This document shows, in pieces, positions 1 to 18,774 of a stretch of DNA of 28,362 nt (the first letter of the stretch is position 1; each line of letters begins with the position of its first letter). The stretch comes from a virus (Duplodnaviria > Caudoviricetes). A program made the position numbers and the translations under genes. The notes beneath the pieces are model-generated. The model did not search any database, was not told the DNA's origin, and saw nothing but the letters and a program-made list of their open reading frames with translations. Where the stretch lies: positions 1 to 28,362 of IMG/VR virus record IMGVR_UViG_3300030095_001066. One strand, 5' to 3'.

Positions 1-1
1 T

Positions 2-64
2 GTAGAGTATGCAAGAAAGCGATTGAAAGACAACAAAAGAGTTTATTATTCTTGTAGTTGGTAA
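2..64 (+). CDS. 3' end of a phage hypothetical protein (partial; ...VEYARKRLKDNKRVYYSCSW*)
   Basis: Open frame from position 2 to TAA at 62-64, ending just before the first promoter repeat. Confidence 0.6.
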   Translation, partial: VEYARKRLKDNKRVYYSCSW

Positions 65-71
65 AATAATA

Positions 72-116
72 GGGAACCTTTATTGATTAGGTTAGTATAA
101 GTAATAGAAACAAAAA
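72..116 (+). promoter_or_regulatory. Early promoter copy 1 (GGGAAC-N17-GTATAAG), ECF-sigma-like
   Basis: The 45 bp are identical to 698-742. Intergenic and upstream of a + strand gene. Confidence 0.85.
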
Positions 117-188
117 TACTTGCCATTGGTGTGCATTGAACAATGTGGCATAATAGTCTTTGCAGTCTGTGAAAGTCAGGCCAAGTAT
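116..188 (+). ncRNA. Candidate structured leader RNA between promoter and RBS
   Basis: ATACTTG (116-122) pairs with CAAGTAT (182-188), with possible inner hairpins. The segment is absent from the other promoter-RBS copies. Confidence 0.35.
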
Positions 189-212
189 AAAACAAAAACA
201 AAAGGAGAGCAG

Positions 213-503
213 ATGAATACGATTGAATATAAAAGAAATAAAAAATGGTATGAAAAAGCATTCAAATTGCTAGTGAATAAAAAAATAATAGCGGTTGGTT
301 GGCAAAAATGGGATGCAGAAGATGAATATTCTTCTACAGGATTAGTATTTAAAGTGGATGATGGAACACAATTCTTTGTAGGTTGTGATGATGAAGGCAA
401 TGACGCAGGTGCATTACATTGGCAAGATGACAAAGATTATAATGTATTGCCTGTTGGTGTTGCTTCAGTAAATGAAATGAGAAAACAAAAGGAGAACAAA
501 TGA
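213..503 (+). CDS. Hypothetical phage protein (96 aa; DDEGNxAG motif)
   Basis: ORF 120..503 re-started at ATG 213, which follows the AAAAGGAG RBS. Confidence 0.85.
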   Translation: MNTIEYKRNKKWYEKAFKLLVNKKIIAVGWQKWDAEDEYSSTGLVFKVDDGTQFFVGCDDEGNDAGALHWQDDKDYNVLPVGVASVNEMRKQKENK

Positions 504-688
504 ACGAATACGTAAACAAAAAAGACGCACAACAAAGAATAAATTATATTTTACTTGAAAGAGTAATATCTAATTTAGATGAGCTAGAAGATGATATGCG
601 AGGTGAAGCAGAAGTAAACCCACACGCATACAGAGTAGGATTAAATAAATTAATACTAGAAAAAATAATACAACAAATTAATGTATAG
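500..688 (+). CDS. Hypothetical protein (62 aa)
   Basis: AAAAGGAG RBS; overlaps the upstream stop. Confidence 0.8.
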   Translation: MNEYVNKKDAQQRINYILLERVISNLDELEDDMRGEAEVNPHAYRVGLNKLILEKIIQQINV

Positions 689-697
689 AAAATAGTT

Positions 698-742
698 GGG
701 AACCTTTATTGATTAGGTTAGTATAAGTAATAGAAACAAAAA
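698..742 (+). promoter_or_regulatory. Early promoter copy 2
   Basis: Exact 45-bp match to 72-116, followed by an AAAGGAG RBS and ATG 756. Confidence 0.85.
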
Positions 743-755
743 CAAAGGAGCAAGA

Positions 756-1013
756 ATGAAATTAGCAGGAAGTGGAATAGATGAAGTAAGACTATGGAAT
801 TTGTCAATGTCATTACAAGATGTAGTTAATGAGATGAACCAAATGCAATTACCCTTAGATGAGGAGGGACAAGAAAAGTTGTTCAATAAGATACAACGCA
901 TGAACGAAATCTATGGAATTATAATTGATATAATCTGTTGTAATCCTAAGATGACAGAGTTCTTAAAGGAGTATTCAGAAGGACAAATAAAAATTGACAC
1001 GTATTGCGAGTAA
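756..1013 (+). CDS. Hypothetical protein (85 aa)
   Basis: ORF with RBS directly behind promoter copy 2. Confidence 0.8.
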   Translation: MKLAGSGIDEVRLWNLSMSLQDVVNEMNQMQLPLDEEGQEKLFNKIQRMNEIYGIIIDIICCNPKMTEFLKEYSEGQIKIDTYCE

Positions 1014-1036
1014 CAAATAAAACAAAAGGAGAACAA

Positions 1037-1459
1037 ATGAACGAACAAAAAACAAGATACTTTAAACATAACATAGATGGTAGTGTCCAAGAGATTTGGG
1101 TGCCAATGTATTTAAATTATTATGAGGCAAAAGAACTGATAGAAACTATTATAGGGCAACCCCCAAATAAATTTCTACAAGAAAGTATAGGAGAAAAAGA
1201 ATATCACCCCCATAAAGAAGAACACCCTGATTGGACTGAAAAAGAAATAAACTTTTCAAAAGAATTGTGGAAAGATTTTATGGATTGGTTTTGGGGTAAT
1301 GGTAGATGGTATGATGAGTTTACAGGCTATAATATATCGTCAGATAGTGATAGTGTAAATGGTGCTTTTCATAAAAACTTAAAGTTTTTTGAGGATAGTT
1401 TAGAATTATACTTTGAAGATGTTAAAGAAAAAAGATGGAGAGATGGGAACAAAAAATAG
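1037..1459 (+). CDS. Hypothetical protein (140 aa, acidic/aromatic)
   Basis: ORF 1004..1459 re-started at ATG 1037 after the AAAAGGAG RBS. Confidence 0.8.
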   Translation: MNEQKTRYFKHNIDGSVQEIWVPMYLNYYEAKELIETIIGQPPNKFLQESIGEKEYHPHKEEHPDWTEKEINFSKELWKDFMDWFWGNGRWYDEFTGYNISSDSDSVNGAFHKNLKFFEDSLELYFEDVKEKRWRDGNKK

Positions 1460-1474
1460 TTAAGTGAGTATAAG
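1445..1474 (+). promoter_or_regulatory. Early promoter copy 3
   Basis: GGGAAC + 17 nt + GTATAAG. The spacer sequence differs but its length is conserved, and the same leader/RBS as copies 1-2 follows. Confidence 0.8.
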
Positions 1475-1503
1475 TAATAGAAACAAAAACAAAAGGAGAG
1501 CAG

Positions 1504-1962
1504 ATGAAAGTATATAGAAAAAACCACAAGAACGAAGTTATGAAAGCAGGTAGATATTACATAGGAGATTTATGTTATATCTTAGATGAGAAAGATTGGG
1601 GAGAGGTATGTGATTTAATATTTCCCTTTAATGAAAAACATAATCACAAAGATGTAGCTAATGTAGAACTTGGCGGAAAGTTTACATTAAAAAATGGAAA
1701 GATTATATCTTTGTATGGAACTGAACATGGAGATGGGACATATCATATAAAGAATATGAAAGATAATAACATAGGAAAACTTTATGTAGATAGCGGAACA
1801 TTAGGTTGTGTTATGATACAAGATAAAAGTGAACTGCCTATGGGTAGTGGATTTAAGACGAAAACATTTAAAGAAGATTTTGAGTTGGACTATACCAATA
1901 GCGGAGAGATTGTATTTAAAAATCTTGATGGAGATTGGATAGCATATATACCAACAAAGTAA
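1504..1962 (+). CDS. Conserved phage hypothetical protein (YYIGDLCY...GDGTY...VDSGTLG; possibly DUF4241-like)
   Basis: 152-aa ORF with strong RBS; the motif pattern is familiar from phage hypothetical proteins. Confidence 0.75.
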   Translation: MKVYRKNHKNEVMKAGRYYIGDLCYILDEKDWGEVCDLIFPFNEKHNHKDVANVELGGKFTLKNGKIISLYGTEHGDGTYHIKNMKDNNIGKLYVDSGTLGCVMIQDKSELPMGSGFKTKTFKEDFELDYTNSGEIVFKNLDGDWIAYIPTK

Positions 1963-1966
1963 GACT

Positions 1967-2114
1967 TGGGGGTGGTGGATATTGTCGCTACTCTTTGCGA
2001 GAGAGTATTTGTTAGGGTAGTAAGTAGTGAGAGAAAATGTTATATGTGCGTCTGCGGATGCTAATAAGAATATCTTACTAGTTATTGCATAGCAATTATA
2101 TTCAGAAACCCCCG
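1967..2114 (+). ncRNA. Candidate multi-stem ncRNA (~150 nt)
   Basis: GGGGGT (1968-1973)/ACCCCC (2108-2113), TGGATAT/ATATTCA, TACTCT/AGAGTA, TAGTAAG/CTTACTA and GCGTC/GATGC form nested helices. No ORF. Confidence 0.5.
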
Positions 2115-2231
2115 CTAGATTTGAGGTGCAGATAGAAGAGGAAAACTGCTTAAAACATTCCTGACTTACGACTATTAATCTGTTAGGGGATTATGAAAAG
2201 TTAAGATAGAACAATGCCTTAAAAGATTTAT

Positions 2232-2261
2232 GGGAACTTTATTTAATTAGGTTCGTATAAG
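2232..2261 (+). promoter_or_regulatory. Early promoter copy 4
   Basis: GGGAAC + 17 nt + GTATAAG. No ORF follows. Confidence 0.8.
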
Positions 2262-2283
2262 TAGTATTAAAAGATATTTAAAA

Positions 2284-2615
2284 ATTGGAGATTATAAAAA
2301 ACTATACAAAGATAGTTTAAGTTGATAGGGTTGAGCAGACATAGCAATATATTGCGTTGAGGTTTGAATAAACTTACATTAACGGCTTTGAGTTTTCTGA
2401 ACTTTGTAAATTCAGTTATCAATCGGAAGTGGGCGACGAGAAAGTATGAAAGCTTTATATAATCTTGGAGAGAAACTAAGAGATATAAAATAAGTAATAT
2501 GAGTAAGCGTGGTTATATGACTTACAAGAGGGTATATATTAACAGGCGAGGTATGATTGAGGTTAAACAACGGAGAAAGAGATAGGTAAGAACGCTAACA
2601 ACAATAATCTCCAAT
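2284..2615 (+). ncRNA. Candidate ~330-nt structured ncRNA with its own promoter
   Basis: Perfect 12-bp terminal helix ATTGGAGATTAT (2284-2295)/ATAATCTCCAAT (2604-2615) and several internal hairpins. It fills the gap between promoters 4 and 5. Confidence 0.6.
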
Positions 2616-2623
2616 AAATAATT

Positions 2624-2653
2624 GGGAACTTTAATTAACAAAAGGAGTATAAG
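2624..2653 (+). promoter_or_regulatory. Early promoter copy 5
   Basis: GGGAAC + 17 nt + GTATAAG. Confidence 0.8.
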
Positions 2654-2657
2654 TAGT

Positions 2658-2855
2658 ATGAATAACAAAAAAATAATACAGGCAATCAAAGAGTGGTTAG
2701 CAGATAATATAGTAACTGATGATGAAATTAGTGACATATCAGATGGGACACACGATATAGTGTATGGAAGAAAAGAGTTAGCAGTTTCTATGCTAGAAAA
2801 AATACATACATGGGAGAGATTTCCTGAAAACATAATAACAAGAGAGAAAAGATGA
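2658..2855 (+). CDS. Hypothetical protein (65 aa)
   Basis: ORF 2622..2855 re-started at ATG 2658; ATGA overlap with the next gene. Confidence 0.7.
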   Translation: MNNKKIIQAIKEWLADNIVTDDEISDISDGTHDIVYGRKELAVSMLEKIHTWERFPENIITREKR

Positions 2856-3214
2856 ATGAATACAAAGCAAACCCCAACATAGAAACAGGTGGGACATACA
2901 GGTTCGGAGAGGTGATGTTAAAACCAGTGGAACTATTGATGGTGTTTGGTAAGCCACACGTTATGGATAGTTACAAGGTATCAGGTGAGTATCTGTTTGA
3001 ACACAGAGAAACAGGAACACCAGTAACTTTATATGATTGGAAGTATACTACTCTGTATGAATCAGATGGTATTGAACCAGTAGATTTTTGGAAGTTAGAT
3101 GAGGAGGTTCAGTTCAATATAGGTTCAAACAATAGTTATGCTTTTGGATTTGATGAATGGATAAAATCTTTTATTAAAGATGAGTTAAATAAAATAAACA
3201 AAGGAGAGAGATAA
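2852..3214 (+). CDS. Conserved phage hypothetical protein (TLYDWK motif)
   Basis: 120-aa ORF, translationally coupled on both sides. Confidence 0.8.
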   Translation: MNEYKANPNIETGGTYRFGEVMLKPVELLMVFGKPHVMDSYKVSGEYLFEHRETGTPVTLYDWKYTTLYESDGIEPVDFWKLDEEVQFNIGSNNSYAFGFDEWIKSFIKDELNKINKGER

Positions 3215-3513
3215 TGGGTAAAATGAGTGAGTTAGATAGACAGAGGCGTGAATTACTTGAGGTATGTAGAGAAGTAGAAGTGGAGGAGCTAGTGAAAAAA
3301 GAGGAGCTAGTGAAAAATATTGATGATACCGACACTATACATATACCAGTCTATTATTCAATAGATGATGAGACAGGTATTACACACTACGATACAGATA
3401 GTATGCGTGATTTCTTTGATAAAGAAATCAAACAACTAGAAGACAACACACAAGCAGAGGTTGATGGATGGAATGAGAAACAACAAGACTATGCTATGGA
3501 TAGCATGGCATAA
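3214..3513 (+). CDS. Hypothetical acidic protein (99 aa)
   Basis: AAAGGAG RBS; TAATG coupling. Confidence 0.8.
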   Translation: MGKMSELDRQRRELLEVCREVEVEELVKKEELVKNIDDTDTIHIPVYYSIDDETGITHYDTDSMRDFFDKEIKQLEDNTQAEVDGWNEKQQDYAMDSMA

Positions 3514-3737
3514 TGAATGACAATGGATTAGAAGCATTAAAAATAATAAAACAAATACAAGGAGAAGTAACAATGAATAAAGATAGTAAGCTAGACGAGT
3601 TAGTTAGCGAAGTCTTTAAAGAACTATACAATATAGAGCAACAAGTATTAAGGTTAAGATTGTTGCTTGGACATTTAGAAGAACGTGCTAAAAAAGACAG
3701 AGACAAAAGAAAAATATTAGAACATGAAATACTATGA
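3513..3737 (+). CDS. Hypothetical coiled-coil protein (74 aa; alternative start at 3573)
   Basis: TAATG coupling; an internal AAGGAG RBS precedes a second ATG. Confidence 0.7.
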   Translation: MNDNGLEALKIIKQIQGEVTMNKDSKLDELVSEVFKELYNIEQQVLRLRLLLGHLEERAKKDRDKRKILEHEIL

Positions 3738-3764
3738 AACTTAATTTAGTTTCATGCGTATAAG
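3734..3764 (+). promoter_or_regulatory. Variant promoter copy 6 (TGAAAC-N16-CGTATAAG) with overlapping 8-bp inverted repeat
   Basis: Same spacing and -10 element as the other copies; inverted repeat ATGAAACT (3734-3741)/AGTTTCAT (3748-3755). Confidence 0.6.
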
Positions 3765-3793
3765 ATATATAAAAAAAGAAAGAGAGAAAGATA

Positions 3794-4132
3794 GTGAGAG
3801 ATTACACAACAGATAGTATTGAATCAAAATATAGAGCAGACATAGAAAAGCTTGGGACTTATTCAGTGATTATACCATTGGATAGAACAGACATAGGATG
3901 TTATGTAGAGGGGTTTGATGACATGGACAGAAAAGATAGTGATGAACTTTGTAGAGAGGTTATTAATGTATTAGAGTTTGAGATATTAGTAATGAACAAT
4001 ACAACCGAAGACAATACAAACAATAAGTTTATGACTTTGGTAAAGAATTGCACACAAAAAATATGTAGGATGAACAACTTAACATTCATAGATAAGGATA
4101 AGTTATTCTTATTAGGAGAGGCAAGTGCTTGA
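3794..4132 (+). CDS. Hypothetical protein (112 aa)
   Basis: GTG start; overlaps the next gene. Confidence 0.7.
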   Translation: MRDYTTDSIESKYRADIEKLGTYSVIIPLDRTDIGCYVEGFDDMDRKDSDELCREVINVLEFEILVMNNTTEDNTNNKFMTLVKNCTQKICRMNNLTFIDKDKLFLLGEASA

Positions 4133-4859
4133 TGTAAAAGAAATATATGCAGGATACTTAAAGAAACTAAATGAGGATAATCGTATCAACAGATACGAAG
4201 ACAGGGAACATTGGTTCCATGCCTCATCCAGTGGAATGTGTATGCGTAAGATATATTACAACAGTGTAGAGAAAGTAGAAAGCACAGAGATAGATGAGAA
4301 CACATTGAGGCTATTTAGACTTGGTGATTTGGTTCATGGGGATATACAGGATGCTTTAACTCTACATGGAGAGAAAGAAAAAGTAGATGTATTGATTGAA
4401 GAAGAGATACAGATACAGGACATAAATGTCAGAGGCTTCTTTGATATATGTATAGTTGATGATGATGCAATGTATGATATAAAAACGTGCAATAGTTTTA
4501 AGTGGAGGAACTTGTTTGGTAGAACACCTGACCCTGAACCTGCGGAGAATTATGCGTTGCAGTTAGGCACCTATGCATACTGGTATCAACAGAAGTATGA
4601 TGTTGAATTACAGAAGTTGGCATTGATTTATTATAACAAAGACAACTCTTTAATGAGAGAAGTCAATGTCCCTAAGTCCTTTATTGATAAGGCTTACAGG
4701 TATTGGCAAGATGTGAATGAACGATTTAAAATTGGGATACCAGAAGTATCTTTAGGCACCGCACCAGTATATGAGTGGGAGTGTAATGTTAAATATTGTG
4801 GCTACTTCAACCACTGCGGAGGTGGATTGAAGGGTCAAAGCAAATGGAGTAAACGATAG
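4125..4859 (+). CDS. Cas4-like / PD-(D/E)xK exonuclease with predicted Fe-S cluster
   Basis: N-terminal CMRK, GDLVH, RGFFD...YDIKT and QLGTY motifs, plus three C-terminal Cys (WECNVKYCGYFNHC). Confidence 0.85.
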   Translation: MLDVKEIYAGYLKKLNEDNRINRYEDREHWFHASSSGMCMRKIYYNSVEKVESTEIDENTLRLFRLGDLVHGDIQDALTLHGEKEKVDVLIEEEIQIQDINVRGFFDICIVDDDAMYDIKTCNSFKWRNLFGRTPDPEPAENYALQLGTYAYWYQQKYDVELQKLALIYYNKDNSLMREVNVPKSFIDKAYRYWQDVNERFKIGIPEVSLGTAPVYEWECNVKYCGYFNHCGGGLKGQSKWSKR

Positions 4860-5222
4860 ATGAGTGATAAAGTAAAATTATATAGCCGTACTGGATACGG
4901 AGAGTGGAACGAGAAAGTTGTAGGTAAAGCAAAACAATTCTGTGTTCTTTGTAGAGATGCTCTTGATGTGCTGTATAAAAACGGCATAGCAATATGGACA
5001 GATGGACACAATGCAGAGCCAATGAGTAGTGGTAGGTGTTGTAACTATTGCAACGATACAAAAGTAATACCTGCAAGGATTAGATTAATTGCAGGAGAAG
5101 ACCCAAAGATTGAGGGATTCTATGAAGACCTTCTTGAGATGGATGAACTTATGTCATCAGTTCAAAGAGTTTGGGATTTAGAATCTTCAAAGTTAAAGTT
5201 AAAGAAAAAAACAAAGGAGTAA
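4860..5222 (+). CDS. Zn-binding phage protein (CxxC...GHNAEP...RCCxxCN)
   Basis: Cys motif pattern; start is adjacent to the upstream stop. Confidence 0.75.
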   Translation: MSDKVKLYSRTGYGEWNEKVVGKAKQFCVLCRDALDVLYKNGIAIWTDGHNAEPMSSGRCCNYCNDTKVIPARIRLIAGEDPKIEGFYEDLLEMDELMSSVQRVWDLESSKLKLKKKTKE

Positions 5223-5224
5223 CA

Positions 5225-5545
5225 ATGGCTAAAACATTAGCAAATGGAAGAAAAAAAGCAGTCAATACAAAAACTTATGCAACAGGTAGAAAGAAACATT
5301 CTAACATACCTACCTTAAAGACAGGTAGAGCGAGGATAACTTCAGCTAAAGGTAGACCAAGCAAAACTTTATATGTGTTAAAACATTTAGAGGAGCATGG
5401 GAGTATCACTAGTTGGGATGCTATACAATTATATAGTGCAACTAGATTGTCAGGTATCATCTTTACCTTAAAAGAACAGGGGTATGTGATTGAAACTACT
5501 GGCGGTGCAGGTAGAAACTTTGCTACATATCATTTAAGAAGTTAA
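5225..5545 (+). CDS. Winged helix-turn-helix DNA-binding protein (HTH_39-like)
   Basis: VLKHLEEHGSITSWDAIQLYSATRLSGIIFTLKEQGYVIET motif; AAAGGAG RBS before ATG 5225. Confidence 0.8.
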   Translation: MAKTLANGRKKAVNTKTYATGRKKHSNIPTLKTGRARITSAKGRPSKTLYVLKHLEEHGSITSWDAIQLYSATRLSGIIFTLKEQGYVIETTGGAGRNFATYHLRS

Positions 5546-5553
5546 AAATAGTT

Positions 5554-5583
5554 GGGAACTTTTTAAAGTTAGTGGCATATAAG
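5554..5583 (+). promoter_or_regulatory. Early promoter copy 7, followed by a 5' hairpin (5590-5617)
   Basis: GGGAAC + 17 nt + ATATAAG; TAAGCCAA/TTGGCTTA stem near the expected start site. Confidence 0.75.
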
Positions 5584-5636
5584 TAGTAGTAAGCCAAAGC
5601 AATGGTGCCTTGGCTTAAACCAATAAGGACTTAAAA

Positions 5637-5816
5637 ATGAACGAAAAAATAAATAAAAGAATCACTGAAAATTGGAACTTAATTAAATGGAAAAGTGAAC
5701 AACGAAATGTAGAACAAGAGTTAATTAATTTAATTGAGAGAGAACAAAGCTTTTTAATTGATTTATTAGAAGATGAACAAGTAAAACAATTAAATAAACA
5801 AAGGAAAAAACAATGA
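5637..5816 (+). CDS. Hypothetical protein (59 aa; not in ORF track)
   Basis: TAAGGA RBS; open frame MNEKINKRI...KQRKKQ*; ATGA overlap. Confidence 0.65.
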   Translation: MNEKINKRITENWNLIKWKSEQRNVEQELINLIEREQSFLIDLLEDEQVKQLNKQRKKQ

Positions 5817-5983
5817 GTGAAGATGAAGATAGAGGAGTGTTAGTCTGCTGTGATTGCGGTGGTTCACCTAGTAGTGAGCCTATGGAAGACGTAGGATGTA
5901 ATATATGGTCTGCCCTATGTGCTGTATGCAGAGACTGGGCTGACTTTAAATATGAAAAAGACATGGAGGAAGAGAATGACTGA
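5813..5983 (+). CDS. Small Zn-finger protein (56 aa; CCDC...CAVC; not in ORF track)
   Basis: AAAGGA RBS; two CxxC pairs. Confidence 0.7.
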   Translation: MSEDEDRGVLVCCDCGGSPSSEPMEDVGCNIWSALCAVCRDWADFKYEKDMEEEND

Positions 5984-6140
5984 ATTTGATAAAGCAATAA
6001 AGTTACAAAGAGAGATTGATGAGCTTAAAAAACATAATATACTAATTGGGATAGATGATAAACTAAAACAATTAGATAGCTTAGGTTATGAATACATGGA
6101 GCACAACATGACTTCTTCAATAAGAAAGAAAAGAAAATGA
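5976..6140 (+). CDS. Hypothetical protein (54 aa)
   Basis: ORF 5919..6140 re-started at ATG 5976 after GGAGG. Confidence 0.65.
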   Translation: MTEFDKAIKLQREIDELKKHNILIGIDDKLKQLDSLGYEYMEHNMTSSIRKKRK

Positions 6141-6280
6141 CAAAAGTAATTGACAATGCTTGGGATATAAAAAAAGAAAAGCATTTAAACCCTAATAATA
6201 TTATATTCAAGGACAAGAAGTATGTCAAGATATACAACGACATGAAAAAAGTAAACGATAAAATAAAGGAGAAACGATGA
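6137..6280 (+). CDS. Hypothetical protein (47 aa; not in ORF track)
   Basis: ATGA overlaps at both ends and fills the gap exactly. Confidence 0.55.
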   Translation: MTKVIDNAWDIKKEKHLNPNNIIFKDKKYVKIYNDMKKVNDKIKEKR

Positions 6281-6951
6281 GAGTAGAAACAACAATGTCA
6301 GAATCAATCAAGAACTTAGCATCAGCACAAGTTAAAGTTCAACAAGAGATTGAAGACATGGCACACGACAGTAAAGGCTATGGATATAATTATACATCAT
6401 ACGATGCATTAGTTAAATACCTTAGACCATTACTAACCAAACATGGAATATCATTTGTTCAGATGCCAGTAGGCTCTAGCAGTGAGATAGGTGTTGAGAC
6501 TTTGTATATGCACACATCAGGAGAGTGGATACGTAGCGGTATGATGACACCGATTGCAGACTCTAAAGGTATGAACATATATCAGTCTGTAGGTTCAGCT
6601 ATTACTTACTTCAGAAGATACAGCTTATCAGCATTCGTGGGTATTGCTAGTGATGCAGACAATGATGTAAAGTCTATAGAGGTTGATGCTAAACCTATAA
6701 ACAAACCTGCAGCTAAACCTAAAAAGGTAGTTAAAGTAAAGGGTGAACCAATATCATCCACCGATGCAGTGATATTACGTGGTATGTGTCAAGGACTAAC
6801 TAGTGATACAAAAGAAAAAGTTAGAGAAGGACTTGAAAGTAATCGTATAAATGCATCTAACATTGAAGATACAAAGAAATGGTTAGAAGGATTGATTGAT
6901 GCACAAGACACTACTTTATCACAAGAAGAAGTAGAGAAAGTTTTCAGTTGA
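6277..6951 (+). CDS. erf: ERF-family single-strand annealing protein (recombinase)
   Basis: GYNYTS, HGISFVQ, HTSGEWI and GSAITYFRRYSLSAFVGIASDADND signature motifs. Confidence 0.9.
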   Translation: MRVETTMSESIKNLASAQVKVQQEIEDMAHDSKGYGYNYTSYDALVKYLRPLLTKHGISFVQMPVGSSSEIGVETLYMHTSGEWIRSGMMTPIADSKGMNIYQSVGSAITYFRRYSLSAFVGIASDADNDVKSIEVDAKPINKPAAKPKKVVKVKGEPISSTDAVILRGMCQGLTSDTKEKVREGLESNRINASNIEDTKKWLEGLIDAQDTTLSQEEVEKVFS

Positions 6952-6982
6952 TTATAGATAGTCAAACACTTAAATTAAATCA

Positions 6983-7318
6983 ATGAAGACAAAAACAGTA
7001 AAAATAAAAAAGAAAGTAGTAGGAAATGTAAAGGGTGAAACCTTTATTAGAGAATTAGATTCTTCTAAAGATTTCCTACGAACTCCACCAGCAATAACTT
7101 TTGATGAATTGGCTCTGTCAAAAGCTGAAGAGTTGGGTGCGAACAAAATAAAAGTTGAAGATACTTTAACAGGTATTAATTATTATTCAACTATCAATGC
7201 TGTCCGCTCTAGGGGTTTTGCTTTCAACAGAGGACTTGGTAGTCAGGTTGGTCTTGCACTATCAGAATGGAGTAAGAATGAAGAGAGCCAAGTTAAAATA
7301 TTCGATAGCACAGAATAA
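6983..7318 (+). CDS. Conserved phage hypothetical protein (111 aa)
   Basis: ORF in operon orientation. Confidence 0.75.
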   Translation: MKTKTVKIKKKVVGNVKGETFIRELDSSKDFLRTPPAITFDELALSKAEELGANKIKVEDTLTGINYYSTINAVRSRGFAFNRGLGSQVGLALSEWSKNEESQVKIFDSTE

Positions 7319-7334
7319 AAAAGGTAATCATACC

Positions 7335-7445
7335 ATGCTTTATAATGTATTGACTTGTAAAGATAGTTGGTTGTATGTCAAGTATTTTAAACTAGATAAA
7401 CAAAAACAAATGTTAAACGAATTAGAAAAAAAGGATAAAGAATGA
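7335..7445 (+). CDS. Possible small protein (36 aa)
   Basis: ATG 7335 in the frame of ORF 7197..7445; ATGA overlap with the next gene. Confidence 0.35.
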   Translation: MLYNVLTCKDSWLYVKYFKLDKQKQMLNELEKKDKE

Positions 7446-7813
7446 AATATAAAACATACTTACTTCTATTGTTTGTAGGCTTAGTATTTTACACTGGTTG
7501 TGTTTTTAGTAATAAACCTAATGTAAAGCTAGAGGCTACAACAGCAGAATATACACCTGAAAAGGTAGTAGAGGCAGAGGTGCCTGAAAGTCCAGAGCTA
7601 ACACCTGAAGAAAAGGTAGAAGTTCAGGAAGAAATCAAGCAATCTTATAAAGAGATAGAAGAAACACTTGATGTTAAAAAGAAATCAGTAGAACAAATGC
7701 GTGACGATGTGCATAAAATCTTAGATGAAATCATTGAAGAAGATAGCAACGTAGTCATTTCATTTAATATGCAGATAAAAAACCCATTGGTATATGAAAC
7801 AAAAGAAAACTAA
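7442..7813 (+). CDS. Putative lipoprotein / membrane-anchored acidic protein
   Basis: Basic N-terminus and a hydrophobic stretch ending in lipobox-like YTGC. Confidence 0.65.
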   Translation: MKYKTYLLLLFVGLVFYTGCVFSNKPNVKLEATTAEYTPEKVVEAEVPESPELTPEEKVEVQEEIKQSYKEIEETLDVKKKSVEQMRDDVHKILDEIIEEDSNVVISFNMQIKNPLVYETKEN

Positions 7814-8060
7814 ATTAACATACAACGATATGTTAGAAGTAATGACATCTCTTAAACAAGAAATGTTAATAATGAAAAATGAAATCTTTAGTGTTCAATT
7901 TCTTATTAACTCCTTATTAGAGATGAATCAAGATGTAGATAAATTAACTGACTTTATAGAGGGTAAAATTGAAAAAGAAAAAGATGACACCACAACAGAT
8001 GGGAAGAAGAAACAGGCAAAGGGGAGCAGAACTACAGAGACTAGCGGTAAACCTAGCTAA
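7794..8060 (+). CDS. Hypothetical coiled-coil protein (88 aa)
   Basis: ORF in operon orientation. Confidence 0.7.
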   Translation: MKQKKTKLTYNDMLEVMTSLKQEMLIMKNEIFSVQFLINSLLEMNQDVDKLTDFIEGKIEKEKDDTTTDGKKKQAKGSRTTETSGKPS

Positions 8061-8328
8061 AGATTTTAACCTTGAAGCACACAACAGAGACAGGGGTGGA
8101 GCTTGTCATCCATTAGGAGATATATTAATTGATGGAAACTACTATGGATGCAAAATGCGTAAAGCTATACCATCCTATTTGTTACCTGAAAAGGAAGAGA
8201 TAGGTGTAGTAGTAAGAGCAGATAGAATTAAACCAGTAATACTTATTGACTTAGAAAGATATTTATTAATGTTAAAACTTTTGAAAGAGGCAGAACATGG
8301 AGATGAGAGCATTGATAAGCTTGTATAA
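7984..8328 (+). CDS. Holliday junction resolvase (Hjc-like PD-(D/E)xK nuclease), with degenerate motifs
   Basis: GRRNRQRGAELQR N-terminus and GDILI...YGCK pattern; start could be 7969, 7984 or 7999. Confidence 0.6.
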   Translation: MTPQQMGRRNRQRGAELQRLAVNLAKDFNLEAHNRDRGGACHPLGDILIDGNYYGCKMRKAIPSYLLPEKEEIGVVVRADRIKPVILIDLERYLLMLKLLKEAEHGDESIDKLV

Positions 8329-8479
8329 GGATTTATACAAAGCAGGTAAGATAACTGGTGCTGGAGTAGAAAGACATAATGAATTGGTTAAAAAATATAG
8401 AAAAAAACTTATGGAGTCTTATGATTCTAAAACAGGAAAAAGAATCAAAGCAATTAAATTAATAGAGGTAAAGAAATGA
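8297..8479 (+). CDS. Hypothetical basic protein (60 aa)
   Basis: GAGG RBS; coupled to the next gene. Confidence 0.65.
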   Translation: MEMRALISLYKDLYKAGKITGAGVERHNELVKKYRKKLMESYDSKTGKRIKAIKLIEVKK

Positions 8480-8742
8480 AAATTAACTACAAAGATATAT
8501 CAATAACATTTAAGTTTAGATTAGAAGAACTAGAGAATATGATAGAGGTATATACAAGACAACCAAAGAAGTGCGTTCTTGAAGATGGTATTAGACAAGA
8601 CCTTAGAAACATAAGAATTAAAGTAGAAGAAAGAATTATTTTAGAAAAACAAACAGAAGAACAAAGGCCACCTGAAGATATGAGAGAGGCTTCAGCTAAC
8701 CCTACATCTGTTGAACACATAAAGGAGACAACTAATGAGTGA
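8476..8742 (+). CDS. Hypothetical protein (88 aa)
   Basis: GAGGT RBS; ATGA overlap. Confidence 0.7.
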   Translation: MKINYKDISITFKFRLEELENMIEVYTRQPKKCVLEDGIRQDLRNIRIKVEERIILEKQTEEQRPPEDMREASANPTSVEHIKETTNE

Positions 8743-9004
8743 TTATGTACCAAAACCAAATACAGCAAACCTATTTCATAATGATGTAGGTGACAATCCA
8801 AAAAGACCTAATTGGAAAACAATAGGGACAGTAACTTTTAATGGAGTAGAAGGATATGTTTCAGGCTGGAGTAAGAAAGCAAGCAATGGAAATGATTTTA
8901 TATCTATTGTCTTTGAAGACAAAGAAACTTACGAAGCTAAAAGAGGCGGAGCAAAACCTCAACCTAAAGAAGCTGCACCACCTAAAGACGATATGCCCTT
9001 TTAA
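8735..9004 (+). CDS. Small SSB-like protein (DUF736-like) with acidic DDMPF tail
   Basis: NPKRPNW...VSGW...FISI pattern and the SSB-type C-terminal DDxPF motif. Confidence 0.7.
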   Translation: MSDYVPKPNTANLFHNDVGDNPKRPNWKTIGTVTFNGVEGYVSGWSKKASNGNDFISIVFEDKETYEAKRGGAKPQPKEAAPPKDDMPF

Positions 9005-9007
9005 CAC

Positions 9008-9228
9008 TTAGGCTAGTAGAATATTTTCCGTATAAAATATCAACACAAGTGCTAGCCTAAAACTTTAATAGCTGTCAGATGTTTATTGTTATACAGTTAG
9101 TTTTTTCCTTTTGGTCTGACAGCTAACATTGGGGTAATATAGTATAAGATTAAACAATTAAAAAAGTGAAAGGAATACTATTACTTTTGATATTGTTTGC
9201 AATACTAAGGTTGGCTACCATTACCCCA
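9008..9228 (+). ncRNA. Three tandem stem-closed elements (9008-9060, 9069-9125, 9130-9228)
   Basis: Closing helices TTAGGCTAG/CTAGCCTAA, TAGCTGTCAGA/TCTGACAGCTA and TGGGGTAAT/ATTACCCCA. Non-coding; strand inferred from the operon. Confidence 0.5.
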
Positions 9229-9237
9229 TAAAAAATT

Positions 9238-9432
9238 ATGAAGAACAACGATAAAATATTACGTATGATTAAGCAGCGGCTAGATATAGGTGCTGCAAAG
9301 TATGGGGAACAAGTTCCTATTGATGGAAGTAGGGACAATCTTAAAGAAAGTATAGAGGAATTGCTAGACCTATGTGTCTACTTGTCCGCTGTTGCCCTGG
9401 AATTGCATGAAAAATACAAAAATGATGAATGA
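9238..9432 (+). CDS. Small all-alpha phage protein (GxxKYG...EELLD..VYL), possibly NTP-pyrophosphatase-like
   Basis: Motif pattern; last gene of the + arm. Confidence 0.65.
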   Translation: MKNNDKILRMIKQRLDIGAAKYGEQVPIDGSRDNLKESIEELLDLCVYLSAVALELHEKYKNDE

Positions 9433-9571
9433 CGCATTAGCTTGTAGCTTCAGGGCATTCAGTGTAATTAATCGATAGTTATATCCAATAGAAAAAGTTA
9501 TGGCCGTATAGGCCTATCCTCGTGAGGAGAATTTTAGAAAAGTGTAGAAAAAATTAAAGAGTTGTTATTAT

Positions 9572-10684
9572 TTATCTGAACTCCATAAAATCGTAATCAT
9601 TTTGATTTAATGACATACCTCTTTTTTTTAATGCTTTAATAATACTAGGATTTCCTATTTCTGTTTTTAATAATTCAGGATATTTTTTTGTAATGTCTGC
9701 AATATTATCTCCTTTTAATATAGTAGCATACGCTGAATCAAATCCCCTTTCAAAAATACTTACGTTATTTCCAGGGCTAATTCCTTTCTCAAAATTTTTT
9801 ATTCCTGCAAACGGAGATTCTATATTTCTAAATCCTATATTAGTATCACTGACAAGACTTGTTTTCGTAGGTCTTCCTGTACCTATATTATAAAGTTTCT
9901 TTAAAAAATAATCATTGGAACTAAAAACTCTAGCATCTCCAGGAAAAAACTTTTCTGACATTTTTTTAATCTCATCTACTGGTACTTCATATTTTATAAT
10001 TTTAATAGGATTATTACCTAAATTAGATGACATATTATTTGCATACCACAATGCAGTTTGAGGGCTAGTCGTTGCATACATATGAACATTTGAAATTCCA
10101 GCTGGTCTACCCATAGCATCTATTAAAGCAGGGTCTTGCAAAGGGTCAAATCTCATTGGGTTTATTCCTTCAGAAGCTTTATAACTTGATGGCACTAACA
10201 TTTTATCTGGAATCTTATCTTGAGCAAAATAAAATCTTTCAAGTTTAACTGGCTCACCCCAGTCAGCAACATTCTCTAGTGGAATATCTCTTATTATTTT
10301 AGAATCAGGAACAGTTCCTTCTATTCCTTTATAGAAAGTAACGAACTCATCTCCAGATTTTTTAGCAGCTACCGCAGCAAGTCTTGTATTAACAGCAGCA
10401 CCAACAAAAGGAAGTATTGCAGCCATTGATAATGCTGCATCACCATACTTTCCTTCTAGTCCATATAACATAGCATCTGTAAAGTCAGCAATAGCACCAA
10501 CGGGTCCAGGAGTAAATCCCATACCTGCTAATGCAATATGAATATTACGTCTGTTATTATTTTTAACCGCATTTTTTTTAGCACTTGTAGCTTCTGCTGT
10601 GTTTAAACTTTCTGCAGCAGCAGTGTAATTAAACGAAGGAGAACCTACTAAGTCTAACATAGTTATTTTCTTTTTATCTGACAC
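9572..10684 (-). CDS. Polymorphic-toxin-like protein A: shared leader + pre-toxin-TG-like domain + ADP-ribosyltransferase-like C-terminus
   Basis: IHIALAGMGFTPGPVGAIADFTDAMLYGLEGKYGDAALSMAAILPFVG; FYKG...YATTSPQTALWYA...IIKYEVP. Confidence 0.7.
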   Translation of the reverse strand: MSDKKKITMLDLVGSPSFNYTAAAESLNTAEATSAKKNAVKNNNRRNIHIALAGMGFTPGPVGAIADFTDAMLYGLEGKYGDAALSMAAILPFVGAAVNTRLAAVAAKKSGDEFVTFYKGIEGTVPDSKIIRDIPLENVADWGEPVKLERFYFAQDKIPDKMLVPSSYKASEGINPMRFDPLQDPALIDAMGRPAGISNVHMYATTSPQTALWYANNMSSNLGNNPIKIIKYEVPVDEIKKMSEKFFPGDARVFSSNDYFLKKLYNIGTGRPTKTSLVSDTNIGFRNIESPFAGIKNFEKGISPGNNVSIFERGFDSAYATILKGDNIADITKKYPELLKTEIGNPSIIKALKKRGMSLNQNDYDFMEFR

Positions 10685-10686
10685 TT
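10611..10686. repeat. 76-bp exact direct repeat, copy 1 (start and first ~24 codons of protein A)
   Basis: Identical to 11937-12012 by direct comparison. Confidence 0.95.
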
Positions 10687-10687
10687 A

Positions 10688-12010
10688 CTATTTACCTTTT
10701 ATTTTCCTGTATAAAAATTTCATTGGTAATCCTTCATCTAATATCATTTCGTTTATCATGCCAGGACTGGCATTTTCTTTCATTTTAAAACTATCTGAAT
10801 TTAGTTTAGAACCTGTTATAGGATACTTCCTACTTCGCAACTGTCCATCTAAACCTACTGATGTACCCCCCTCTTTATATGAGGTAAATTTAAAATCAAG
10901 TTCATCACTAAATTCTTTTACAAACATATTATCATTTCCTCTTAATTTTCTATTTTGAATTTGTTTTCTAAGATATGATTTAGGTACCTTGAAATGTAAT
11001 ACTTCGTCACCATAACTACTTGCTTCTTTAAAATTTGTAGAAGCCCATACCATTCTTGGGGTAGTATATTCCTGACTTACTTTTGTATAGTCGTAGAATT
11101 TTGTTGGCTGCACAAATTCGTTAAAAGGATTTTTAGGAATTTCTTTTGCACGACCATAAAGGTCATTTCTCCCAAAGTAATCTGTTGGTAAGGTATCTTC
11201 TTTTATTGGTATAAAACCAGGTTCAGTTTTAGTACGTCTTATATTTTCAATAGTATTACCAGTTCCAGCTTGTCTTGAGTATGTAAAATCTGCGTATTTA
11301 CCACTATAATTAGCATCATACAAATCATCAATATATTTTGCTCTTGAATATCCCATCTCTTTGTATTGCTTTGGTCCTACTCTTCTTTGTATATTTGTCA
11401 ATGATAAAGGTATTTCTCCAGTTTTTTTATATCTTCTAAATAAATTCATACCATCTTCTGGGTTAGGGACTACTCTTTGAAATATATATTCTAATTGTAC
11501 ATCATCTAACTGTTTAAAAAACCTGTGCTGTCTTCCAACTGCAAACTTTTGCCCACCTTCTGTTATAACATTATGTTTTATAAATTGAGATTCAAATCCG
11601 TGGTACACATCTATTAGCTTTTCTCCAGATTCCTCAGCTAACTTCATACCTCTTTTAGCAGCTACTGCAGCACCTACTACAGGCAGGATAGAAGCATAAG
11701 ATAACGCTGCATTTCCGTGTTCACCTTCTAAGGAGTATAGTACACCATCTGTTAAATCAGCTATACCACCAGCTATTTCTGTGACAGGTGCAGTTACAGG
11801 GGAAGCTATACTAGCACCAGCTGTAGCTAAACCAAAACGTTGTAATGCTCTGTGAATTTTTTCTCTTCTATCTAATTCAACCACATCTTTCTTTGTCTTT
11901 TTAGTTACACGAATAGCATCTGCTGTATTCAAAGCATCTGCAGCAGCAGTGTAATTAAACGAAGGAGAACCTACTAAGTCTAACATAGTTATTTTCTTTT
12001 TATCTGACAC
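10688..12010 (-). CDS. Polymorphic-toxin-like protein B: shared leader + pre-toxin-TG-like domain + ADP-ribosyltransferase-like C-terminus
   Basis: GGIADLTDGVLYSLEGEHGNAALSYASILPVVG; VYHG...WASTNFKEASSYG..VLHFKVP...NEMIL. Start placed at GTG 12010 by homology with protein A. Confidence 0.72.
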   Translation of the reverse strand: MSDKKKITMLDLVGSPSFNYTAAADALNTADAIRVTKKTKKDVVELDRREKIHRALQRFGLATAGASIASPVTAPVTEIAGGIADLTDGVLYSLEGEHGNAALSYASILPVVGAAVAAKRGMKLAEESGEKLIDVYHGFESQFIKHNVITEGGQKFAVGRQHRFFKQLDDVQLEYIFQRVVPNPEDGMNLFRRYKKTGEIPLSLTNIQRRVGPKQYKEMGYSRAKYIDDLYDANYSGKYADFTYSRQAGTGNTIENIRRTKTEPGFIPIKEDTLPTDYFGRNDLYGRAKEIPKNPFNEFVQPTKFYDYTKVSQEYTTPRMVWASTNFKEASSYGDEVLHFKVPKSYLRKQIQNRKLRGNDNMFVKEFSDELDFKFTSYKEGGTSVGLDGQLRSRKYPITGSKLNSDSFKMKENASPGMINEMILDEGLPMKFLYRKIKGK

Positions 12011-12012
12011 TT
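11937..12012. repeat. 76-bp exact direct repeat, copy 2
   Basis: Identical to 10611-10686; overlaps the stop of the 1188-aa gene. Confidence 0.95.
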
Positions 12013-15000
12013 TCACCTAAACGTTTTTGATTCTTTTTTCTAATTAATTCATACACATCAGCAACTGATGGTTCTAATATAGGATAGTCAGGATTAGCTG
12101 TGTTCCAATTAGTTAATACTTGTCTAGCTTTTTTATCTCTACCTTCATAAACTAATTCAATAATCTCTTTATTGATTCTAGTTCTTTGATACTTTAGCTT
12201 ACCTTTTGTTTGTTCGGCAGATTCAGCTCTCTTTGCAATATTATTCATATTACTACCAAGAACTTTACTATATCTTGTTGTTGACCTACGAAGTGCACCA
12301 GCTACTCCATAATCACCTGACTCATTCATAAGCTGTGATGTTGCAGTCCAAAGTTTTTCTATATCAGACATAATAACTGGTGTAATAGTAAACCTTAAAT
12401 TTTGCATCTTACTTTCTGCTGCTAAAAAATCTCCCATAACACCCATAGCACCAACCGCAGCTATTCTATCAATAACATTTTCTGCATTACGAAAATCATA
12501 ATCATCTCTACCTGATAATTTTTTTTCTATAAAATCGTATGAGTGAAGTAAAGCAGTCCCACCTACATTAGCTGCTACCGCAAGTCTCATTATGGGCATT
12601 ACATTACCATAAGATAAATCAGTTCTTAATTGGTCTTTAATAAACTTAGCCTGTTTTAATGGGAAGCTTTTTAAAACTACAAATGGTCTGAACTTAGGAT
12701 GTGTCATCCATAACAATTCTTTTGTGTGGTTTCTAAGTAGCTGCGTATCTCTACTATATCTAATCGCACCACGAGTAAGTTGCTCTGTAGTTAAATCTTT
12801 ACCATTGAATATAATACCATAGTCATTTTGTAGTTTATCTTTAGCCCAAGCCTCTCTTGCTTTTCCAGCAGTTGTTTCTTTTCTAATTTTATCTCTTACA
12901 CTTTTAGGCATTCCTGTGCCAGTGAATAATCCTGACTTACCTTGTGATATTTTATTTAAGTATTGCATCATATCAACACCAATAGAAGCAGCAGTGTATG
13001 TGTTCATTCTATTTGCAAAATTAAAACCAGAAAATTGTGTTGCTTTCATAGCAATTTTTTCTGATAACGTTTGTCCAGGTTTAAATCCAGATAAAACTTC
13101 CATGTGTTGAATGTTAGAATTTCTTGCAATTCCAGCATCTTTAAGAAATTTACCTCTACCCTTACTAACAAATGTTTTCCCCCAACCTGAAAGTCCAACC
13201 GCATAATTAGCACCTAACAAACTTGAAATCATGGGCTGAAATACATTAGCAAGTGTAGCAGTACCACCTGCAATCTTAGTAGTTATTTGCCATTGAGTTG
13301 CAGTTCTAAAAGCGTTTTTAACAGCAGGGCTATAATTAAAGTAAGGCATTGTTTCAATGGCACCTGTTGCTCTAATTAATACATCTGTTAAAACATTAGC
13401 ACTTAATTGGTCACCTTTTAATTCTAAGTCTCTTATCTTTTGTTCAATTCTTTTATTACCTACTCCTAAAAATTTACCTCTAGCTAATTGGTCTGCCCAA
13501 GTATTAGAATAATTAAGAAAGTTTGAAACGCCATCTGTTTCAAATATATCACTTGAATATTTTTTTAAATTTTTATCCCAGTATATATATGTTTCTCTAC
13601 CTTTCTTTAAATTATGAAATGTTTTTTTGTGGACAGAGTTTAAATCATTTCTAATATTTAAATATGCTCTGTAAAAATCATCTCCAGATGATTCTTTAAC
13701 AAAAGAAAGATACTCTCTAACTCCTTTATTGGAATTGTTTTTTATTTCTTTTTCAATTCTTTGTTTTAAAAAACTTGCTTCATCTTTTGTAAACTCTCTA
13801 CCTGCTCTTACAGCATCATCTAATCCAGGCCTATCTTTTAACATCCTCATTCTAAGCTCTGTAAGTTTATCTTTTACATCAAACCTTAAATCTCTCATAG
13901 CATACTTAGCTATAAACGGTGCAATCTCTGAGTCTATTTTTGCATACTGTTCGTACATATCTGTCATAGCAGCTCTTAGTTTTTTAGCCACATCATCTAA
14001 TTGATTATCTGGTAATAACTCTAATTGTTCTGTTAATTTTACTCTATCGTCTTTTGAAAGCTTACCAAGTTCTTTTAAACTAATATTATGTTTTTTAAAT
14101 ATCTCTCCAAGTGCAGCATCTTTTTCAACATGATAATCGTCTAATAATTTCATAGCCTCTCTTGCTCCTGGTAAAGCACCTTTTCTAGTGACAGTAGATT
14201 CAGGTGAAGCAAACGGTGAGTATTTCATATTAAAAAATGTTGGTAAAGTTTCTGTTCTAAAAGTATGAAACCTGTTAAAAATATTTTTATCTACTTTCTT
14301 TTCAATATCCATTGCCTTAATATTTCTTTCAAGGTTTGAAATATATCTTTGTCCCTCAATTAATCTTACTTGTTCATATTTTTGTTTTGGAGACATTTTA
14401 GATAAGTCACTTTTAATTTTTAAAGTAGGGAACTCTTTAACTCCTTCATTAATAAGCCTATCAAGCTGTGCTACTGGAGCATCTTTACCTTTTTCAAATC
14501 CATACTCTTTGAAAAACTTATTCTTGTTCATTTTTTGACTGATTGTTCCATCTAAAGATTGAAACTCTACAGTGTTTTTTGTTTGTTTTGTAACTCTTAC
14601 TCCACCATCTTGTCCAAAAAATATCTGTGGTTTACCAAGAGATACAAAAGCTTCTTGTTCTATAAGGTCATCTCTAAATTGTTTTTCTTTTGTAGTAAGT
14701 GCTCTGTTACCAAACTTTCTTTTAGATGATTCTATATTTCCTGATATGCTTTTACCTATTCCAGAAAGACCTCCACCCAATACTTTAACACCACCAAGAA
14801 TACCTGCAGTAAATGCTAAATCTTGTGGACTAGGTAGCAGTCTACCTTGTTGAAATGTATATGGTTGTGTAAACCCAAGAACTTCTCCCCCAAGTCCAAG
14901 AGTGCTTTTTAACATATTGGGTGCTTTGTTTCCTACAATATTAGTACCAGCTACTTTACCAAACTTACCTAAACCTATGGAAGCAGCACCAACCAAAGAA

Positions 15001-15566: not shown

Positions 15567-15567
15567 A

Positions 15568-16716
15568 TCATTGCTGTAGTCGAACTAATTTTCGTCTTGC
15601 AGTGTCTTTCATTTGTTCAGTAGCAGAGTCACTATTAATTGTTCGTGTTAAAGCATTTATTCTGTTTTGATTAAAAGGTTCTACAATTTGTTCAGCTGTA
15701 GGTAAAGTTACTTCTCCTTCTATAGACAACTTAAGATTACCTTCTTCTGTTCTACTTACAAAAGGTTCTATACCTTCATCTATATCTGCTCCACTAATTT
15801 CTAAATCTACTATTTCTTGAATTAATTCATCTTCTGTTTTTAATTCTTCTGAAAGGTCTTTTACTTGAGAATTTACAACTGGACCAGCATCTGACTCCAT
15901 CATAGAATCCATCTTATTAGTTCCTATTTCTTTTTCAAACTTTACTTTACGTTGATTTCTTTCTTGTTGTACAATGTTTAAACCAGCTGAAAGAGGATTC
16001 TTCACTTGATTGTCTAAATTTTTTATCTCTGATTCTAACTCTAATAATCTTTCAGAATATGTTAATAAATCTTGTTCTAATAATTTTTTTTCATCTTCAC
16101 CTATTTCTGGTGGTTGACCATCTGAAGGTCTTAAGATTGCATTATCAAATGCTTCTATGTCAGCTGCAGCATTTCCTGCTGATTCTCTAAGACGTTGCCT
16201 TTCTGATTCTTTTGCTACTTTCTGTACATTCAACGCATTTATAAATTCTAAGTTTTGAAATTTTTTCATAGCCTCAGTTGCCACACCATCTACTGTTTCT
16301 AGGTAAAAACTATCTGGATTATTTTTAATTTTTTCCCATCCAGAAACAATTTCTCTCCAATCTGAAGTTGTTGGGTCTATTGTTTGCATATCTTGTAAAA
16401 TTATTTTTTCTGAATTGCTAGTAACCCTATCATATTTACCATCCATAGCTGCAACAATTTCATTTAATTCCATTACGCTTGCAAGTTCTCTTTTATCTGA
16501 AAGATAAGGAAATTGTTTTTCATACTTTAAATACAATTCATAGTTGTCACGTTTAGCTTTTTGTTCTAATTGTTTTTCAGCAATTCTTTCTTGTGCTTCT
16601 ATCTGTGCACGCTCTAATCTATCTCTTGTAGTGCCAAATATAGAGTCAACGATATTAGTGCTTGGCTCTTTATAACTAACATTTATATCTCTAGTTAATC
16701 CTTTTCCGTTAGCCAT
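15568..16716 (-). CDS. Putative internal virion protein (382 aa, acidic coiled coil)
   Basis: Synteny and composition; TAATG coupling. Confidence 0.55.
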   Translation of the reverse strand: MANGKGLTRDINVSYKEPSTNIVDSIFGTTRDRLERAQIEAQERIAEKQLEQKAKRDNYELYLKYEKQFPYLSDKRELASVMELNEIVAAMDGKYDRVTSNSEKIILQDMQTIDPTTSDWREIVSGWEKIKNNPDSFYLETVDGVATEAMKKFQNLEFINALNVQKVAKESERQRLRESAGNAAADIEAFDNAILRPSDGQPPEIGEDEKKLLEQDLLTYSERLLELESEIKNLDNQVKNPLSAGLNIVQQERNQRKVKFEKEIGTNKMDSMMESDAGPVVNSQVKDLSEELKTEDELIQEIVDLEISGADIDEGIEPFVSRTEEGNLKLSIEGEVTLPTAEQIVEPFNQNRINALTRTINSDSATEQMKDTARRKLVRLQQ

Positions 16717-18670: not shown

Positions 18671-18686
18671 AAATGTATTCCCTAGG

Positions 18687-18757: not shown

Positions 18758-18774
18758 TTGTATTATTATTCATA

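Follow-up and report, generated by a model that had tools for sequence, protein, structure and literature searches.

The DNA stretch analysed here (the window, 28,362 nt, the whole of an IMG/VR virus record that is 64% complete) carries on its plus strand a 332-nt element, RNA B, which is very probably a structured RNA under selection and which represents a new family of a known kind, the large phage RNAs without known function. Its fold is conserved and no ORF is conserved along with it; it is patchily present among related phages, has cassette boundaries and occurs in two genomic settings. RNA B is accessory, being gained or lost as a cassette between repeated promoter-like boxes. A preliminary description of this DNA had proposed a new large class of phage ncRNA, with its gene in an early-gene cassette slot. 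Both proposals are supported by covariation, the lack of a shared ORF, the absence of an Rfam match, contigs from RNA runs inside the element and exact promoter-to-promoter indels ( Table 1 ).

The window record was detected in marine runs. Its left arm holds small plus-strand genes, a Cas4-like nuclease and an Erf-like annealing protein, and seven copies of a GGGAAC...TATAAG repeat, putative promoters, are interspersed among these genes. The window belongs to a phage lineage (lineage 1) with a P22-like portal and an SU10 capsid protein; a second lineage (lineage 2) has a different terminase and capsid. A complete relative of the window, G001, encodes terS, terL, a P22-like portal and an SU10-type capsid protein and is devoid of RNA B.

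The two strands of the closing helix P1 are exact reverse complements, as the preliminary description had claimed, and no second perfect 12-bp inverted repeat with arms within 400 nt exists in the whole window; any such 12-bp repeat occurred in 32 of 5000 dinucleotide shuffles of positions 2262-2625. Also as described, P1 ends 8 nt ahead of the next GGGAAC box (2624), and no plus-strand ORF of at least 40 aa follows the fourth promoter-like copy, none starting anywhere in the gap 1963-2621. Folding z of the region is -2.39 on the plus and -1.98 on the minus strand. Three of the nine full-length homologous rows carry P1 changes from G-C to A-U and from U-A to C-G, and the homologue L215 carries a third variant. 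Among the homologues it is the pairing that is conserved, rather than a small ORF, no ORF being common to both sequence types.

Homologues were collected by scans for neighbouring proteins and by four motif scans, three on viral and one on metagenome contigs, and the candidates were judged by nhmmer; 5 of 32, 6 of 74, 6 of 70 and 9 of 25 candidates per pattern scan were true homologues, most matches being due to chance. Including the window, ten distinct RNA B sequences were obtained (332 to about 375 nt, 63-99% identical), one of them truncated at the 3' end and one sharing 99% identity with another of the set. Their interiors are of two types, with identities of 86-95% and 87-99% inside each type and of 63-71% across types, and both types are present in both marine phage lineages. 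In lineage 2, a TTGACA-type promoter precedes RNA B, which has a sigma-region-4-like gene on one side and the terminase genes on the other, and both its upstream and downstream neighbours differ from those of lineage 1. Each record holds one copy. RNA B was found in 4 of 80 examined loci with terS relatives (of 272), a count that yields no absence rate since many loci end short upstream. These searches employed no covariance model and may miss distant homologues; a descriptor search with 187 motif pairs returned eight weak non-family candidates, none of them backed by nhmmer. GenBank phages and plasmids gave only two chance 33-nt matches and no homologue. In GTDB genomes, none occurred at 120 loci (42 of 64 parts scanned) or at 57 loci with motif-only matches, and protein queries recovered no relative. 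No protein tracks RNA B, as those shared by the lineages either occur in relatives without it or are lacking from the window.

From P1 inwards, the trunk proceeds through the side hairpin P2, P3, a three-way junction with P4, and then P5, which is formed in all ten sequences and encloses an interior of 204-245 nt including P8. In a 35-pair core (10 distinct rows, the L215 row being off by one column in P1), 95.9% of 338 cells are paired. Eleven cells of this core are changed on both sides, against 3.8 in shuffles (none of 500 as high), while the number of pairs with a change on both sides, 3 against 2.1 (152 of 500), is not unusual; in the full fold of type 2, compensation occurs at 7 of 116 pairs, the shuffled value being 2.0 (0 of 500). 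All these shuffle counts are support and not probabilities, since the sequences tested, themselves related, also gave rise to both structures. Covariation, for which the preliminary description had suggested testing homologues from viral metagenomes, is supported by both the core and the type-2 fold. P2 and P5 are nearly invariant and so contribute no covariation signal. The strands of P1 and P3, about 300 nt apart, are matched in all nine full-length rows, even though versions of P1, P3, P4 and the interior occur in mixed combinations among the homologues. Contigs from RNA runs add a C-G to U-A variant at 2464/2480 and a U-A to C-G variant at 2463/2481. The base of P8 reads GAAA/(A/G)AGTA in 9 of the 10 homologues; elements of this hairpin may be a T-loop and a loop E. 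The inner fold has competing pairings around 2397-2419, and the 3' side of the 2397-2415 hairpin could alternatively pair with about 2553-2561. Variable pairs comprise 22 G-U against 1 A-C types, in a count for which G-U was permitted when folding the structure, and the alignment fold is -122.8 on the plus against -88.8 on the minus strand; because of this G-U bias and the stronger plus-strand fold, an RNA of the plus strand is favoured over a DNA hairpin.

Eight inner helices had been proposed from the single sequence. Their motifs are all present, and homologues support four of them, one in part and three not at all. Pairing of AAACTAT/ATAGTTT (2299-2318) is found in 100% of cells, TCTTGG/CTAAGA and TTTATAT/ATATAAA are upheld, and CTGAA/TTCAG shows a U-A to C-G change between the two types. 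GCAAT/ATTGC survives as the tip of the variable arm only. TTGATA/TATCAA is replaced by the pairing of 2321-2332 with 2591-2602 in all ten sequences, and AGGTTT/AAACTT, the AGGTTT side of which is unconserved, by that of CTTAC with GTAAG (P5), again in all ten; TAAGT/ACTTA is missing from the type-1 alignment fold and unconserved in type 2.

Table 1. Features of RNA B, its cassette and other RNAs of the slot. Positions refer to the window unless a related locus (L) is named.
Feature	Position	Strand	Description
Promoter-like repeat, 7 copies	63-116, 689-742, 1436-1489, 2223-2276, 2615-2668, 3726-3779, 5545-5598		
Promoter-like repeat, copy 4 of 7	2232..2265	+	GGGAAC box 2232-2237, TATAAG 2256-2261; left cassette boundary
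Promoter-like repeat, copy 5	2624..2653	+	Next copy; right cassette boundary
AU-rich leader	2270..2283	+	Conserved ahead of RNA B in all ten homologues
RNA B, whole structured RNA	2284..2615	+	332 nt, closed by P1 (2284-2295 with 2604-2615)
P2 hairpin	2299..2318	+	Near-invariant: no change at 6 of 7 pairs, U-A to U-G at the other
P3, 5' strand	2321..2332	+	Pairs with 2591-2602; two alternative versions, strands always co-travel
P4 variable arm	2335..2366	+	32-71 nt, one hairpin or three, at three-way junction
Invariant 16-nt block	2368..2383	+	Contains P5 5' strand CTTAC (2373-2377)
Inner hairpin	2397..2415	+	One compensatory pair between types
P8 long hairpin	2444..2500	+	G-C-closed AG(A/C)GAAA loop (2469-2475) in 10 of 10
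Invariant 12-nt block	2582..2593	+	P5 3' strand GTAAG (2586-2590) and start of P3 3' strand
Element A, rod-like structured RNA	1967..2114	+	z -4.08; separate, upstream in the same non-coding gap
Element C, small RNA candidate	2120..2223	+	Closing stem and covarying pseudoknot
Element D	L129 about 1770-1910; L090, L210		After RNA B in lineage 2; possible pseudoknot
Element E	L010 4050-4122; L215 upstream of RNA B		About 73 nt, closing helix of at least 14 bp, directly after promoter copy
Element F	L010 4139-4653		About 515 nt, multi-helix candidate, z -4.4, same leader as RNA B, no Rfam match
Element G	L010 about 4655-4735		Follows element F
Two structured RNA candidates	L403 2384-2520; L406 2115-2310		Same leader, TTGACA-type promoter, lineage 2

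The promoter-like repeat has GGGAAC where TTGACA would stand, and this box is reminiscent of the -35 box of ECF sigma factors. The scanned proteins of the window's lineage include no sigma factor, and a sigma-70 scan left copy 4 unscored. The promoter had been described as dedicated to RNA B, a claim that did not hold in general: it is absent or displaced in 2 of 10 homologues, RNA B following element A without a preceding copy in L017 and being separated from the promoter by another RNA in L215, and for these reasons it is not RNA B's own; lineage 2 has a TTGACA-type promoter instead. The AU-rich leader also precedes unrelated RNAs in L010, L403 and L406 and is likely a processing leader. No terminator-like site occurs in 1900-2750, and as no intrinsic terminator follows RNA B, a free 3' end would need processing.

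RNA B is absent from all five relatives that are at least 94% complete and present in 2 of the 15 contigs holding element A. In two pairs of loci (L219/L007 and L002/L008) its presence and absence correspond to an exact 431-nt indel from promoter box to promoter box, the exchanged unit being promoter, leader and RNA; a third pair (L017/L010) gave no clean indel alignment.

The slot houses an exchangeable set of unrelated structured RNAs, which in the window includes elements A and C. The 5' motif of element A occurs in 15 IMG/VR contigs, so that it is more widespread than RNA B; its homologues were aligned, and it had no match in Rfam. In its internal loop, AGAGAAA- and (U)GAGAAU-like strands face each other, an arrangement that presumably recalls the interlocked T-loops that bind the tRNA elbow. 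Element C is composed, in the window and in L002, L008, L009, L215, L443 and L449, of a hairpin with a purine-rich loop, a UUAAA linker and the partner strand of that loop. Changes in the loop are accompanied by changes in the partner (four versions among seven loci), the MFE z is only -0.73, one RNA-run contig lies at 2103-2246 and Rfam gave no match; element C is a candidate small ribozyme or nuclease-resistant RNA. Element D is followed by a hairpin and then by an intrinsic terminator. Elements D, F, G and those of L403 and L406 were delineated from single-sequence folds and closing helices. The profile of RNA B matched none of the nine other slot RNAs tested, and the slot RNAs of relatives had no Rfam match. 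Long-stemmed non-coding inserts also occur beside promoter copies in lineage 1 (L014 about 3760-4060, L008 712-795, L006 2990-3110 and L007 4886-5000). The slot could conceivably be a hypervariable, promoter-shuffled array of RNAs (A, B and C; D, E, F, G and others) with a shared leader, cut into stable RNAs and forming the RNA counterpart of anti-defence protein islands, with RNA B as a new family of large decoy RNAs traded between unrelated phages of one host, a picture that as a whole we regard as rather doubtful.

RNA runs were searched with positions 1500-3200 as query and not with RNA B alone. All five runs with a small share, from three studies, yielded contigs inside 2284-2579 (2315-2550, 2296-2532, 2343-2531, 2284-2579 and 2284-2575), the last two of which, both from one study, begin at the first base of P1; a sixth run (X4) covers all of 1000-4200. 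Over 1-20000, outside RNA B, runs X17-X20 gave read-sized or partial pieces among the matches listed, X18 and X20 also having pieces of 137-157 nt on neighbouring genes, and lack of cover elsewhere was not taken as evidence of level. The contigs have low depth (3-23), cannot show strand, ends or level, and come from RNA libraries that may hold DNA. Of the discrete RNA of 330-350 nt foreseen in the preliminary description, they bear out that RNA-run sequence lies inside RNA B, and they hint weakly at a discrete transcript with a 5' end near 2284, trimmed about 15 nt past the inferred start.

Rfam searches of the window and 18 loci returned no match at the gathering score, with chance-level E-values only (best 6.9, for 1900-2700), and ARAGORN detected no tRNA or tmRNA gene in the window or in any of 12 related loci. 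The lack of tmRNA, RNase P and tRNA signatures claimed previously is in agreement with both searches, and no Rfam family was found for the region. A tmRNA- or tRNA-like RNA was also rejected on the basis of the T-loop motif (0 of 10 rows) and of the lack of an ORF common to both types. RNase P RNA, SRP RNA, 6S RNA, introns and small ribozymes were discarded for want of an Rfam match, core motifs of RNase P, group I and group II introns and hammerhead being found in 0 of 10 rows each; resemblances to an RNase P-like permutation, the hairpin ribozyme and retrons were weighed and dropped. The non-coding RNAs of retrons and DRTs have a closing inverted repeat at their ends, as RNA B does in P1 (12 bp); this assignment was rejected as neither the 42 proteins of the window nor 38 selected ones from relatives include a reverse transcriptase, although a distant one may exist, the records being 22-67% complete. 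A counterpart of the phi29 pRNA, an essential packaging RNA of phi29-type phages, was rejected as the complete relative G001, with its terS, terL and P22-like portal, lacks RNA B. RNA C and RNA D of T4 are about 120-140 nt long and lie in a tRNA cluster. Neither has a sequence match to RNA B in the phage collection; they are phage non-coding RNAs of the late class, with no known function (PMC9697503).

The closest likeness in kind is to ROOL and GOLLD, which are phage-borne and, as RNA B, large, multi-helix RNAs with no known function (PMC12286853). Both are longer, RNA B (332 to about 375 nt) being about half the length of ROOL (659 nt in one example) and GOLLD (more than 800 nt) (PMC12286853). 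They often lie near tRNA islands, whereas no tRNA gene is near RNA B, and RNA B does not match their Rfam covariance models. The setting is reminiscent of the PeSL cassettes of the T4-type phages RB49 and phi1, in which repeated promoter motifs mark a hyperplastic region whose cargo is swapped by recombination, as here (PMC2839356). The cargo of PeSL is however an ORF, whereas in the present case it is a structured RNA gene, in a small podovirus-like phage and with a different promoter motif, and the terminator stem-loop joined to the PeSL promoter was not found in 1900-2750 (PMC2839356). Racr (PMC10651486) and pseudo-ToxI (PMC3475682) are non-coding RNAs with which phages counter host defence through mimicry; both are short repeat mimics, whereas RNA B is one large fold with no known RNA as its model. 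Pseudo-ToxI consists of tandem antitoxin-like repeats, and no tandem array occurs in 1900-2700; Racr has a solitary CRISPR-repeat-like unit, and RNA B has no Rfam CRISPR repeat match and is far longer than a CRISPR repeat. No published description of RNA B was found in titles and the openings of abstracts, a survey in which few subscription journals were covered. Part of the supplements to the IMG/VR screen of Fremin et al. 2023 (PMC10690425) was searched for four motifs and two contig names without a match, and the alignment files of that study may list RNA B or parts of it.

RNA B is tentatively proposed, with somewhat less than even confidence, to be an accessory conserved non-coding RNA that is made early, trimmed, and acts in trans through its shape, as a decoy or ligand of a host protein. 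Early transcription is likely, and the transcript would then be trimmed to a stable RNA, the ends of which are predicted to be sealed by the 12-bp helix. Action in trans is suggested because neighbours differ, no protein tracks RNA B and no complement of at least 13 nt exists elsewhere in the window, and the new promoter box that follows RNA B was also counted toward it. The host protein bound could be, for instance, a defence nuclease or a sensor. A decoy, a role that the preliminary description had also raised as possible next to an anti-defence one, is favoured because high turnover in the early-gene region and the presence of RNA B in unrelated phages suggest that host factors exert selection; with unrelated RNAs occurring behind the same leader, the slot turns over in the way accessory early genes do. 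The analogy is with Racr and pseudo-ToxI, neither of which RNA B resembles.

The main rival, which is compatible with a decoy and which we consider unlikely, is that RNA B is a smaller ROOL/GOLLD-like ornate RNA forming an RNA-only homo-oligomer (cage or scaffold) through contacts that conserved A-rich junctions and loops would make between copies. The invariant A-rich junction blocks, the stretch with two or three possible partners, the absence of a co-occurring protein and the RNA of about 515 nt in the same slot of L010 are consistent with it, as is the fact that ROOL, phage-borne like GOLLD, is abundant and non-essential, with no known protein partner (PMC12286853); half the length of those RNAs, no Rfam match and no tRNA gene in the window or 12 loci argue against it. 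Absence from all five near-complete relatives, movement with promoter cassettes in the manner of PeSL-flanked genes (PMC2839356) and a long closing helix without a terminator would also fit a near-neutral passenger, or a cis element of the early transcript (a processing site or stabiliser), spread by promoter-to-promoter recombination. Yet a multi-helix fold of 330-375 nt kept at about 65% identity between types goes beyond what a processing stem needs, the flanking genes differ by lineage and a new promoter box follows RNA B, so that this origin is quite improbable.

Conservation is concentrated at one junction, as in catalytic RNAs, and RNAs in tandem arrays require separation, which could point to a ribozyme or self-processing RNA whose catalytic core would be the invariant three-way junction, made up of P3, P4 and P5 together with the blocks of 16 and 12 nt; with no ribozyme or intron match in Rfam, the core motifs named above in 0 of 10 rows and no spliced joint at the ends of RNA B in RNA-run contigs, we hold a catalytic role to be hardly probable. 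Similarly small is the chance that RNA B is an sRNA controlling host or phage mRNAs through base pairing, for although it has invariant unpaired or weakly paired segments and phage sRNAs acting by pairing are known (PMC10884466), its invariant blocks are mostly paired internally and the window offers no complement of at least 13 nt. A DNA-level element, namely a MITE whose terminal inverted repeats are 12 bp long or else an origin or packaging site, would agree with the perfect terminal inverted repeat, the presence and absence among relatives and the proximity to terminase genes in lineage 2. This reading is largely refuted and very improbable: empty sites (both aligned pairs) break at promoter boxes about 50 nt outside the left repeat, there is no target-site duplication and one copy per record, G-U bias points to one strand, the inner helices covary, and a complete relative lacks what would be an essential origin or pac site.

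Only a small number of large structured RNAs is known from phages, and RNA B adds a family with covariation support and RNA evidence from the field that is small enough for direct synthesis and structure solution. The swapping of many RNAs in one slot provides natural pairs of phages with and without each, and the signature of leader plus promoter is a simple handle for finding more of them. If RNA B is indeed a decoy, RNA-based counter-defence of phages would be wider than repeat mimics.

Two further observations concern other parts of the window. Two adjacent minus-strand genes at 9572-12016 have near-identical N-terminal ends (a 148-nt repeat, 80% identical), and the pair is absent from G001. 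Positions 9005-9235 form a non-coding gap where two transcription directions meet; in L005, L006, L007 and L008 the corresponding gap contains three long hairpins, which may be terminators together with a further RNA.
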